Below are positions 7,530-63,155 of a stretch of 64,000 bases of DNA, one piece after another. Below the pieces are notes generated by a model that saw only the letters and a list, made by a program, of their open reading frames with translations, ran no database searches and was not told where the DNA came from. The stretch lies in NCBI GenBank assembly GCA_951406725.2, contig OX597826.1, forward strand, positions 64,046,001 through 64,110,000. The letters run 5' to 3'. Made by a program: the position numbers and the translations under genes. This DNA comes from Octopus vulgaris (lineage: Eukaryota). The number at the start of each line of letters is the position of its first letter. The stretch's first letter is position 1.

Positions 7530-9356
7530 TTCTCTGTCCCACACATCAGGTGTATAAACTAAAAATAATATGAATAAAAACTAAAGAGAAGATCGAATTA
7601 ATAGTGTGTGTGTTTAATTGGCAAACAAAAATGACCATCTCCAAGTATAACAATATCTGTTTCAATACACTGTTTCACAACAATAATCTTGCTAAACAAA
7701 TACATAAATGTATGTATGTATGTATGTATGTATGTTTGTATGTATGCATGCATACATACCTACATACATACATACATACATACATATGTGTGTGTATATG
7801 TTTGTGTCTCTGTTTGTTCCCCCCAACATCACTTGACAACTGATGGTGGTATGTTTACCTCCTCATAACTTAGTGGTTCGGCAAAAGAGACTGATAGAAT
7901 AAGTACTAGGCTTCCAAAGAATAAGACCTGGGGTCGATTTGCTCGACTAAAGGCGGTGCTCCAGCATGGCCACAGTCAAATGACTGAACCAAGTAAAAGA
8001 GTAAAAGAGAAAGTACTCAGCACACTCTGTAAAGTGGTAGATGTTAGGAAGGGCATCCGACTGTAGAAACCAAGCCAAGTCATACTGGAACCTGGTGTGA
8101 CTCTCCAGCTTGCCAGGGCTGGTCAAACCATCCAGCTCATGCCAGTATGGAAAATGGAAGTTAAACAACGATGATGATGGGTTTCTTTCAGTTTTTGTCT
8201 ATGAAATCCATCCCCAAAGCTTTGGTCATCCCAGAGCTATAGTTGAAGGAACTCACCCAAGGTGCCACTGAATGAGACTGAACCCAACACCACATGGTCA
8301 GGAAGCAAATTTCTTAACCACACAGCCATGTCCGCACCTAGTCACATATAATTAGCGTAAAATTGCATAATGTTTGAATATTAATTAAATACTCGTTTCC
8401 TTGCTTAAAGTTGTTCATGCATAATAATGTAATATATTTAGTCGTTTATAACTTTCACATTTATAAGTAATTATTATAATTAGGTAAGATGATGAATGAC
8501 AGAACTAGTGAAGTGCCAAATTTGATATTTCATCATATCCTTTTATTCAGACATAGTATATCTAAGATTATGATAACCAATATTTCCCCATTTTTTAAAG
8601 ACACTATATTTTATCATTTATTTGTGGTGGTGGTGGAGGTTGTGGTGATGATGGTGATGATGATGATGCTGGTAGTGGTGGTGATGGTGATGATGATGAG
8701 GAAGAGGATGGTGGTGGTGGTGATATCCACATAAAAATTTTCTCTTATGAGAACATCCCAGACAGACATTTTGTTATCTGATAATTCAATTGCATCATTA
8801 AAAGGTACAAACATTTTCATTTGCTCAATATGAATAACATTAAGTGTGAAACCCATGATAATTGAATAATAGTATTTGACTGTGTTTGTATGAGATAAAA
8901 TTTATACTACATGCTTTATAAGCTTGTTTTTGAATTATCTTTTTCAAGACAATAAACCGTTGTTTCTTGAACATTTTATTCTGCACAAGCATTTATTGAT
9001 GATAGAATTAAAAAGGTTTAGATATTCTACAGCTTGTGAAAAAAAAAAATTCTAAAAATATCTCTTCATTCAACAATGGGAAGTCACTAAATAAAGATAA
9101 TACATAGGAGAGAGAGAAGGATTACTCTAAGTAGATGCAGCTGAGGATGTGACTGTTAGAGAGAAAGAGGGTCACTCCAACACTTGACTAGTTCTCATGT
9201 TCAACTGAGATTCAGCATAAATTTTTGATTTATTAAAATTATTTCCAACTCAAGAGGATGTTGTGTCTTAATTACCAACTGGCAATTGGGATGAGTCGCA
9301 GATAAGAAAAATGATAATCTCAAGAATCAGGCTTGTTGTCTAGAGATAAGAGGACA

Positions 9357-10643: not shown

Positions 10644-11090
10644 GGAGCTTTACCTTTTGACCGACAGATTTAAAAAATAATTTTTCGTTTGTCACTGTTA
10701 CTTATGACATCGTTTGTGCATTTGTACTGATTTTAGCTTTAAGGTTTTAGGGTTAGGGTTAGGGTTAGGGTTTTAGGGTTAGGGTTAAGGTTTTAGGGTT
10801 AGGGTTAGGGTTGTCATAAATAACAGTGACTAACGAAATATACACCGCTGGAAGTTCTTGTTGATAACAACAGCAGTAATTTTATTCAGTGGAATACACG
10901 TCATTGATTGGTTGAAATTACTGAAATAGGACAACTTTAATATGAAATAACTTCGTAAATATAAGTTTTTCTCAAAAATGCTAAGAGTAAAAAATGTTTT
11001 ATATGACACATTCTACCAGTGTCCGAAGTTTGAAAGTGTTTAATTACAAAAAATTATTTTTTAAATTTGTCAGTCAAAAGGTAAAGATCC
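10644..11090. mobile_element. MITE with 42-bp TIRs, 8-bp TSD and internal (TTAGGG)n tract
   Basis: TIR gga(g/t)ctttaccttttgac...aaaaataattttt with 3 mismatches; flanks aaagcttt / aaagcttg; telomeric repeats 10741-10812. Confidence 0.85.
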
Positions 11091-17515: not shown

Positions 17516-17560
17516 CACATGCTGATGATGGATCAATATTCAGAAACCCGGGTCCGTGTG
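17516..17560 (+). ncRNA. Minimal type I hammerhead ribozyme, canonical core, GUC site after 17554
   Basis: Stem I CACAUG/CGUGUG; CUGAUGA; stem II UGGAU-caau-AUUCA; GAAA; palindromic stem III ACCCGGGU; GUC. Confidence 0.85.
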
Positions 17561-17799
17561 TATCACGTCAGGCTGCAGAGGGGAATGATTACTTCCCTTT
17601 GCAAATACTGATAGGGCACAGACGGTGTGTCAATAGCCAGCTGGAGGAGATGTCTTCCTGGGGCTACAAGCTACAGTAGCATCAACCCTTAAGGGTTAGC
17701 CACATTTAGGTGGCAAATATACTTCACAATGTTGTGCAGCTACTGTTTATATCTCGCTCAGAGATTTATTATTGATTTATACATATTTACACATATTTA

Positions 17800-25272: not shown

Positions 25273-26010
25273 TAATGTGAGAGAGGCGATATGAAAAATG
25301 GACATTGATTATGTATAAAGAAATTCTGTCACCACCACCACCACGACCACCACCACTGATCTTTATGCACCCCTACCATCTCATCCTCCTACATCAAGCA
25401 TGTGCATTGCTTTGATGTCAGCCTCTCAGGAGACTCTGATTAATAGGGGACACATGCATGACCAACGAGACTATTAAATAACAGAATAGAAGAAGGGTAG
25501 GGGGGTTCCTGTGGTTGTGGTGAGGGTGTGAGAGTGAGAAGCCCCCTAAATACCCCTTGAAAAAGTTTACTAATGGTATCTATCAATCATCCGTCTCGTA
25601 GAAAGCATGCCTTAACCATTGGAAATAAGTTATTCTTAATGAAATCTCAGCAACTTAGTCAGAAATGAGCCAACGTGAAGAGAGAGAGAGAGAGAGGGTA
25701 AGAAAGAAATATTTTCTTTAATATCAATGAGGAATTTATGTGTGTGTGTGTATACAAACGTATCTAAATACACACACATGCACATATAGCTCATATAGCT
25801 ATAAAAACATACAAACACACACATATGTACATATATAAATATATGAATACATATAAACATATATAATATATAGGGAGATGTACTTGCATAGCAAGTGATT
25901 TGATCTGAGATCGTGTGCTGAAACGAAAACAATTTCAGCGTGGAAGGTGTTTGTAAGCCATTTAAGAAACACACAAAGGCCGTTCGATTCACTTCAACAT
26001 TTAAGTTTAA

Positions 26011-26061
26011 TTTGTCAAAATATTTTCGTCGCTTTAAGACCGCAACCTGTTCACTGACAAA
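26011..26061 (-). ncRNA. Minimal type I hammerhead with G3-C8 covariant core (GUGAACA)
   Basis: Stem I UUUGUCA/UGACAAA (7 bp); GUGAACA plus extra G; stem II GUUGC/GCGAC; GAAA; palindromic AAUAUU; UUU triplet. Confidence 0.7.
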
Positions 26062-26098
26062 AATCTGTGCTGCATCTGAGAAAGTAACAGTTAGTTCG

Positions 26099-26135
<37 letters not shown>

Positions 26136-26482
26136 TGTATGTATGCATGCCTGTATGCATGCATGTATGTATGTATGTACGTATGCATGTGTATGTATGT
26201 ATGTGTGTATATGCACGCGCATACACACTATAAACCTAAAGCTATAAACCTGTAGTGGTGGATAGGTGTAGACTGACCACTCATCACAACAATATCAAAT
26301 TTCAACCTCCCCCCCCCCCCCACCGAAACTAGGAAGTGATTTACGACCCTTACCCCCACGACAAAACTCTAAAACCTATTATCAGCCACATATCTCTATA
26401 TCTCAAAACTTTTGTTTTACTATTACTTATCTTATTTTTTTTTTATCTTATCTTATAGTATATATAATATACTATATGTCTT

Positions 26483-26516
<34 letters not shown>

Positions 26517-62254: not shown

Positions 62255-63155
62255 TTTTCGGCTACGGAGAATACGAATCTGCAAAAAATTACTCCTCCCC
62301 CACTACTTTCTTCATTTTAAACTTTTTTTCAGAATTTTTTTTGGAAAGACTACCACCCGTCTCCCCCCAACCTTATTTTCTCCCAAATTTGTTTATTTGG
62401 CAATGTTTCGTTTGTTTGGCAATGTTTATTTTTGTAATTTTTTTTGCTCCAAATCCCCGTTTTCGGATACGGAGGTTCCGGAAAATTGCCAAAATTCGGC
62501 ATTGTGAAATTTTTTCCCCCTTCCCGCCCCCAACTTCAATTTTGACTTTTTTCCCAACACTAACCCTAACACCCTAACCCTAAAACCCCAACCGTAAGTA
62601 CAGAAATGTTTTGAAAATTTTGTCCGAATCATGATGTCCGTATTTTCCCGCATATTTAGAAAGAAAAAAAAATATTACAAAGATTTTTGGAAATTTTTTT
62701 CAGAATCATAATCTCCGCATATTTTGAAAAAAAAATTGTGAAAAAGTTTTAAATGAAGGAAATGGGGGAGGGGGTAATTTAGAAATGTCGATTTTTGTAA
62801 ATTTTTTTTTTTTGCAGATTCGTATTCCACGTAGCCGAAAAGCAGGGTTTGAAGTGTGGTTTTTGGTGGGTAACGGGCGGAAGTCTTGTCATCCTTTTTT
62901 TTTTCTCAAAATATGAGGAAAAAATACGGAGATTATGATTCTGAAAAAAATTTCCAAAAATTTTTGTAGTTAGGGTTACGGTTAAGGTTAGGGAAAAAAG
63001 TGAAAAAAGAAGAAATTGGAGTGGGGAAGGGAGGCCGAAATTTCAAAATGCCGATTTGGGGCAATTTTCCGAAAACGGGGGTTTTTGGTAAGAAAAAAAT
63101 GGGGAGAAAATGGTGGAGGGGGCGGGAGGAAGCCTTTCCCAGAAAATTTTTGAGA
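62255..63155. mobile_element. Large degenerate foldback element with inverted telomere-like tracts
   Basis: C-rich left half mirrors G-rich right half; ctaaccc tract 62560-62590 and ttaggg-like tract 62969-62993. Confidence 0.65.

Follow-up and report, generated by a model that had tools for sequence, protein, structure and literature searches.

A fixed G3-C8 pair in the hammerhead motif of a high-copy Penelope-like retrotransposon of Octopus vulgaris

The minus strand of the window (by which we mean the whole 64,000-nt stretch of Octopus vulgaris contig OX597826.1 that was analyzed) carries a hammerhead motif in which the C3-G8 pair is replaced by G3-C8. The motif is flanked by a retrotransposon's 3′ UTR and ORF start, on the sense strand of that element; the G3-C8 state is fixed in the family and is swapped relative to the sister families. 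Judged from its sequence, the motif represents the minimal type I hammerhead that resides in the pseudo-LTR (pLTR) of a high-copy Penelope-like element (PLE) that encodes a reverse transcriptase (RT) with a C-terminal GIY-YIG endonuclease (EN).

The hammerhead motif and the element that carries it

The original prediction described a 7-bp stem I, a GUGAACA core and a palindromic AAUAUU on the minus strand from 26061 to 26011, and the sequence indeed reads so, in the layout of a minimal type I hammerhead (Table 1). Stems I and II close the three-way junction, with stem I as the open end. Five positions of the canonical core C3 U4 G5 A6 N7 G8 A9 fit, the exceptions being positions 3 and 8 (G3, C8). 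G12 A13 A14 A15.1, U16.1 and H17 are all present (GAAA ... U U), as are the extra nucleotide between 9 and 10.1, the G10.1-C11.1 pair and the palindromic stem III of PLE minimal hammerheads. The predicted cleavage site is between 26018 and 26017 (U17/U1.1). The stems stand as they had been written. The U-G pair of stem II represents a minority state, occurring in 2 of the 30 closest copies, the family having C-G at this place.

Table 1. Hammerhead motif, host element and flanking features in the window
Feature	Position	Strand	Basis or remark
Minimal type I hammerhead motif	26011..26061	-	Same strand as the element's ORF
Stem I, 7 bp	26055-26061 paired with 26011-26017	-	Window sequence
Core strand GUGAACA; G3 = 26054 and C8 = 26049 replace C3 and G8	26048..26054	-	Sequence; 7,916 exact 17-mer matches; related elements have C3-G8 or U3-A8 here
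Extra nucleotide (G) between A9 and G10.1	26047	-	G in 14/14 aligned motifs; typical of PLE minimal hammerheads
Stem II (5 bp) and loop II	26028..26046	-	One U-G here, family C-G; loop II varies between subfamilies
GAAA, palindromic stem III and U17	26018..26027	-	AAUAUU = 26024-26019; U17 = 26018
Putative transcription start, 23 nt before G3 (A at 26077)	26074..26077	-	Arm starts and extra G
5′-truncated Penelope-like copy (3′ UTR end and pLTR)	25874..26445, 5′ end approximate	-	83% identity over about 600-770 nt to L031/L032
Start of element ORF, about 29 codons, private stop at codon 9	25874..25961	-	Overlaps the 3′ "tail"
Tail between two preferred insertion 3′ ends	25871..25932 (ends about 25932-25926 and 25875-25871)	-	Two clusters among 95 arms
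(CATA)n-rich tract inside the 3′ UTR	26102..26210	-	Common to most of the 30 closest copies
(TA)n target microsatellite, 5′ side of the element	26454..26513	.	3′ side (25828-25873) also TA-rich

Folding of the window motif with ViennaRNA predicts stems I and II (z about −2.1). Stem III is not formed in the predicted monomer (P < 0.001), only −0.2 kcal/mol is gained from the intermolecular stem III duplex, and a G3-U17 wobble pair is predicted (P 0.67). An unconstrained dimer is predicted to fold via stem swapping and not as a hammerhead dimer, and in the longer context of the window copy the hammerhead motif is not the minimum-energy fold.

A strict minimal-hammerhead descriptor that accepts any Watson-Crick 3:8 pair found 26011-26061 as its sole match in the window and gave no match in any of 60 shuffled windows; the descriptor was composed after the motif had been seen, and the homology evidence presented below weighs more. 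No Rfam hammerhead model matched the window motif, and the Rfam matches that did appear were microsatellite-driven noise. The miss is not attributable to the core swap, since Rfam was also without a match for a canonical-core motif of the same window. The latter, at 17516-17565 of the plus strand, is a type I hammerhead-like motif (C3-G8, C17) whose stems I and II measure 6 and 5 bp and whose palindromic stem III has 8 nt, and probably comes from another PLE or retrozyme family.

The element was identified from its longer copies. Two of them, L031 and L032, extend upstream into the GIY-YIG/RT ORF, and the domain order in the longer copies is RT, a CxxxCxxC linker (CQSNCAVC) and GIY-YIG. A single 1,025-aa open frame contains both YVDD and GIY-YIG (Pfam GIY-YIG, E 1.8e-5). 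Pfam RT models gave no score on this frame, and its named homologues are labelled reverse transcriptase domain proteins; the closest named protein, from Octopus vulgaris, is 57% identical. In one locus (L033:5206-5955, plus strand), a 31-codon endonuclease-linker stretch forms about five in-frame tandem repeats.

The 221-nt block around the motif is assigned to a pLTR because the roughly 29 residues encoded in its 3′ part are homologous to a sister-family ORF at its N-terminus: the ORF-start peptide, with copy L002 as the query, shows 45% identity across 22 aa with the N-terminal end of that 1,310-aa ORF (E 6e-5). A pLTR with ORF start and hammerhead, a tail and an inverted partner are all present, direct continuity from pLTR to ORF being seen in the sister family only; among the fetched loci, no full-length copy of the G3-C8 family was found whose pLTR continues into the ORF. 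Inverted 5′-truncated partner copies, two 3′ ends and (TA)n targets, all typical of PLEs, were likewise found, and the two preferred 3′ ends are likely two RT start sites.

The earlier suggestion that the motif belongs to a repeat family proved correct, the family being a high-copy Penelope-like retrotransposon with 7,916 exact 17-mer matches. Its placement of the block at 25870-26100 between microsatellites did not hold, as the element itself takes in the (ATGT)n tract (26102-26210) and continues to about 26445. There are 2,887 candidate genome copies of the 221-nt block, the best of 40 scored being 95-98% identical to it. Alignment of genomic copies, as had been proposed, showed that 30 of 30 fetched copies retain GUGAACA; with the closest copies 95-98% identical throughout, such within-family conservation is by itself weak evidence. 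The window's own copy is probably an inert fossil, truncated and stop-containing. A scan of viral contigs found no relative of the element.

Non-LTR retrozymes, which we take to be tandem 170-400 nt non-coding repeats with a hammerhead, are a different arrangement: the copy in the window stands alone and belongs to a PLE. One tandem array does occur elsewhere, at L068 (G000:C2:17907500-17914000), where a 166-nt unit with the G3-C8 motif is repeated in a retrozyme- or satellite-like manner.

Origin and fixation of the swapped pair

A sister family in the same genome, 47% identical in the endonuclease and represented by 1,481 pattern matches, has C3-G8 at the same place. An older relative, L150, differs from the G3-C8 family only at positions 3 and 8 over the stretch that begins with the four stem I bases next to the core and ends with the 5′ strand of stem II. 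Among metagenome PLEs, C3-G8 is found in L104, L105 and L109 and U3-A8 in L106 and L107. Five of the 14 metagenome loci have the motif, one (L111) has a degenerate core as judged by eye and eight have none, most of these eight being short or lacking the 3′ end. The hammerhead of L104 (4963-5018, plus strand) combines the C3-G8 core with a swapped stem III pair (U15.1-A16.1).

Covariation was assessed in an alignment of 14 motifs. All 14 have a Watson-Crick pair at 3:8 (CG 8, GC 4, UA 2), stem II is paired in 100% of cells and the covariation score was reached by 0 of 500 shuffles. The rows are related, the four G3-C8 rows being one event and six of the C3-G8 rows possibly one lineage, so that the number of independent pair changes behind these figures is about two or three; in addition, L107 is misaligned in its 3′ half. 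U4, G5 and A6 are invariant across the alignment, and G12 and A13 are nearly so.

In a seven-taxon protein tree, the G3-C8 family joins its C3-G8 sister with a support of 100, and all outgroups have C3-G8 or U3-A8. This placement makes G3-C8 the derived state. On the strength of these sequence comparisons, G3-C8 is a natural compensatory swap, that is, a true double substitution of C3-G8. Constraint on the core is loose in this clade, the young sister family having C9 for A9 and L111 a degenerate core. The sister family with C9 (at L054:6693-6752, plus strand) is very young, with copies 98-99% identical and intact 1,310-aa ORFs, and its older relatives have A9. The window itself also holds, at 7631-7723 of the plus strand, a decayed remnant of the sister family's ORF, from its N-terminal end (tblastn E 2e-5). 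Elsewhere in the window, (TTAGGG)n forms short telomere-like interstitial tracts at 10739-10812 and 62556-62597.

U17 was considered as an adaptation to G3. This was rejected, since U17 is also found in C3-G8 and U3-A8 relatives and is common in PLE hammerheads described in the available parts of PMC4209133.

Within the family, G3-C8 is the prevailing state. The fixed 17-mer context gave 7,916 exact matches, compared to 537 matches with a base other than C at position 8 and 312 with a base other than G at position 3; among the 100 matches listed, two C3-G8 rows belong to a related family. Copies with a broken G3-G8 pair number 260 and include inverted pairs with G8 in both arms. The mirror change, C3-C8, was seen in 13 among the 100 listed of the 312 non-G3 matches. 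Four DNA runs under four organism labels contained no variant at a frequency of at least 4% at positions 26045-26062. Differences between subfamilies lie in loop II and the flanks, and the single one within the stems retains a U-G pair.

In a tree of endonuclease DNA, whose root is poorly resolved, the G3-G8 copies, for the most part, sit in one older side branch with G3-C8 copies around them; G3-C8 is the state of the youngest lineage with an intact ORF. The G3-G8 state is found at 7 of 16 loci with the linked motif on contig C16, as opposed to 0 of 19 elsewhere. Older subfamily copies are concentrated on this contig (G000 contig C16; L042, L043 and L168-L180), including most of the sampled G3-G8 copies. 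G8 is also present on younger backgrounds, where it probably arose through chimeras or repeated mutation. An ancestral intermediate role of G3-G8 is not supported, as these copies sit inside the older branch among G3-C8 copies of a poorly rooted tree.

Insertion 5′ ends and the possible role of the motif

Insertions were sampled via an anchor downstream of the motif, which yielded 95 distinct arms from 100 matches listed, on one contig. As many as 37 of the 95 arms start about 20 nt upstream of the core (block positions 16-25), and 29 of the 95 start at window positions 26077-26074; five continue further upstream. No arm starts exactly at the cut site, and only two come within 3 nt of it. Most core-spanning arms (64 of 71) are G3-C8. 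Matches to the start region, 100 listed of 1,915, comprise 53 that continue into element sequence and 47 junctions. By hand count, an extra G directly precedes the start in 32 of the 47 junctions, where the element has C or T, with A in 4 and a pyrimidine in 11; some of the extra G's may derive from inverted arms. Given the known behavior of reverse transcriptases, the extra G is likely a copied 5′ cap, which would set the transcription start at 26077 and make uncut RNA the template. A splice acceptor as the cause of the 5′ pile-up was also considered, the upstream sequence resembling a branch point and YAG; it is less likely, as the letters before the extra G vary between copies. The genome evidence thus argues against efficient cutting of the transposition template.

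The original prediction that a kept pair reflects selection for function is only partly borne out: 3:8 covaries across families, but the template RNA looks uncut and capped, a broken-pair lineage has multiplied and engineered G3-C8 double mutants have been only partly rescued according to the available parts of PMC11167929 and PMC8495972.

Several readings of the motif were weighed. That it merely resembles a hammerhead by chance is hardly credible: the missing Rfam match could be cited in favor, yet the motif shares position and nucleotide-level homology with canonical-core motifs of related elements and the descriptor found 0 matches in 60 shuffled windows. The homologous hammerheads in related elements refute this reading. 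It is improbable, too, that the motif acts as an efficient processing ribozyme, with tandem transcripts cut at each pLTR into unit-length or circular templates, as proposed in the accessible part of PMC4209133. Read-through RNA would hold two hammerheads able to dimerise, the 166-nt array at L068 is retrozyme-like and religated circles would likewise yield site-spanning copies. However, 2 of 95 arms starting within 3 nt of the cut, with none exactly there, do not fit such processing, nor does the dominant 5′ end with its G of likely cap origin, which would be absent from a circle or a cut RNA.

Two further readings, neither of them likely, do without efficient cleavage. In the less probable one, the fold and the 3:8 pair are kept as a putative RT-EN-binding or folding module, or as a translation module, and cutting is incidental or absent. 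Invariant U4, G5 and A6 and near-invariant G12 and A13 speak against it, since established hammerhead chemistry needs these nucleotides for catalysis; the uncut templates and a pair that is always Watson-Crick in spite of tolerated, catalytically less favorable states (G3-C8, C9, U17) speak for it, as does the response of the PAc hammerhead to its own protein (available parts of PMC11167929). Somewhat less unlikely is a hammerhead that lost its job, drifted through a single change and had its pair restored by chance or weak selection, so that it now sits passively in the leader and promoter region. Templates that appear uncut and capped, the multiplied G3-G8 lineage and C9 in the sister family are consistent with such a relic, as are PAc hammerhead mutants whose insertion in vitro is unimpaired (PMC11167929) and Naiad PLEs that thrive without canonical hammerheads (PMC8557442), in both cases as far as the accessible text goes. 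Against a relic, U4, G5, A6, A9, GAAA and U16.1 are intact, as are the two stems and the palindrome, whereas loop II and the flanks vary by subfamily; moreover, the sole subfamily change inside the stems retains a U-G pair, and G3-G8 is nested in an older side branch among G3-C8 copies, the youngest ORF-intact lineage being G3-C8.

We lean towards the view that the pLTR hammerhead, with C3-G8 replaced by G3-C8, is still capable of the predicted self-cleavage, though only slowly or conditionally, with help from an AAUAUU dimer or a protein. The capped transcript would start 23 nt before the core, which would put the hammerhead within the 5′ leader of the RT-EN mRNA. The RT-EN protein would prime at the tail and copy uncut RNA, producing short pLTR-only copies or longer truncated ones such as that in the window. 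The cut would be made only once two motifs pair through AAUAUU or the element's protein folds the motif, and it would strip the capped 60-nt leader. The motif would then serve as an occasional brake or trimming device and not as a template-making step, because the RNA that is reverse-transcribed appears to be mostly uncut. G3-C8 would preserve the active-site pair at some cost in rate. The swap may have been tolerable because the clade already had U17; with C17, pairing to G3 would trap the fold, a mirror image of the C3-G17 trap of PMC3884650, where G17 is stated ("data not shown") to give G3-C8 more activity than C17 does. One might tentatively go further, into more doubtful territory, and propose that the retrotransposon tuned its ribozyme down by a core-pair inversion permitted by U17, gaining an RNA-concentration- or protein-dependent off-switch that decaps the element mRNA, and that this is the first natural high-copy G3-C8 hammerhead.

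Comparison with known hammerheads and Penelope-like elements

The C3-G8 tertiary pair has been established with engineered swaps. A natural G3-C8 family beside C3-G8 and U3-A8 sisters is an evolutionary confirmation of this 3:8 pair, and one clade offers a natural series of C3-G8, U3-A8, G3-C8 and broken G3-G8 in which PLE hammerhead function is directly testable. In a single genome, searches based on CUGANGA can overlook thousands of motifs.

Within the reach of the literature search, no published example of a natural G3-C8 hammerhead was found. The largest survey, Lünse 2017, lies beyond that reach and reportedly comprises roughly 150,000 hammerhead variants; these, or supplements including that of a bioRxiv retrozyme preprint, could contain one. 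Term searches of the accessible parts of PMC11014351, PMC6155905 and PMC13481778 returned no mention of G3-C8. In the literature searched, G3-C8 appears only as an engineered mutant; PLE minimal hammerheads and natural U3-A8 are already published, as seen in the available parts of PMC4209133 and PMC3088659.

By domain and target traits, the element matches EN+ PLEs of the Neptune type. It has the Zn-finger-like CX2-5CxxC linker and the (TA)n targeting of the Neptune clade and, like the Neptune/Nematis-type EN+ PLEs in the accessible part of Craig et al. 2021 (PMC8557442), combines RT, this linker and GIY-YIG at the C-terminus with (TA)n targeting and inverted 5′-truncated partners; its putative clade is set by such traits.

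The motif resembles the minimal hammerheads of metazoan PLEs, as described in the available text of Cervera and de la Peña 2014 (PMC4209133), in its pLTR location, the extra nucleotide at 9/10.1, the G10.1-C11.1 pair and the short palindromic stem III, and also in U17, which is common there, and in the thousands of dispersed truncated copies. Among these minimal hammerheads, a covariant U3-A8 form has already been described. In contrast to the octopus G3-C8, the examined rows of figure S3 of that paper have C3 or U3, none has G3 and there is no octopus entry among them; the octopus stem III is a 6-nt all-AU palindrome and its stem I is longer (7 bp). Natural 3:8 covariation is also found among the core variants of Perreault et al. 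2011 (PMC3088659), U3-A8 being the only form reported in the accessible part.

A further parallel is with the PAc hammerhead of an Anolis Poseidon element (PMC11167929, available parts), which likewise lies at the ORF start, with a tail between two RT start sites. The ORF of the octopus element begins 56 nt downstream of the cut, whereas that of PAc begins inside stem II. A C3G/G8C double mutant of the PAc Penelope hammerhead is partly active, so that G3-C8 is an engineered state there and the natural family state in the octopus element. Unprocessed PAc RNA is the insertion template, and its cleavage needs the element's protein. The uncut-template pattern in octopus agrees with this in vitro result: the 5′ ends and the extra G point to uncut, capped RNA as the usual template in vivo and, if the off-switch proposal above holds true, the cap-derived G at genomic 5′ ends would prove that uncut RNA is what Penelope elements copy in vivo.
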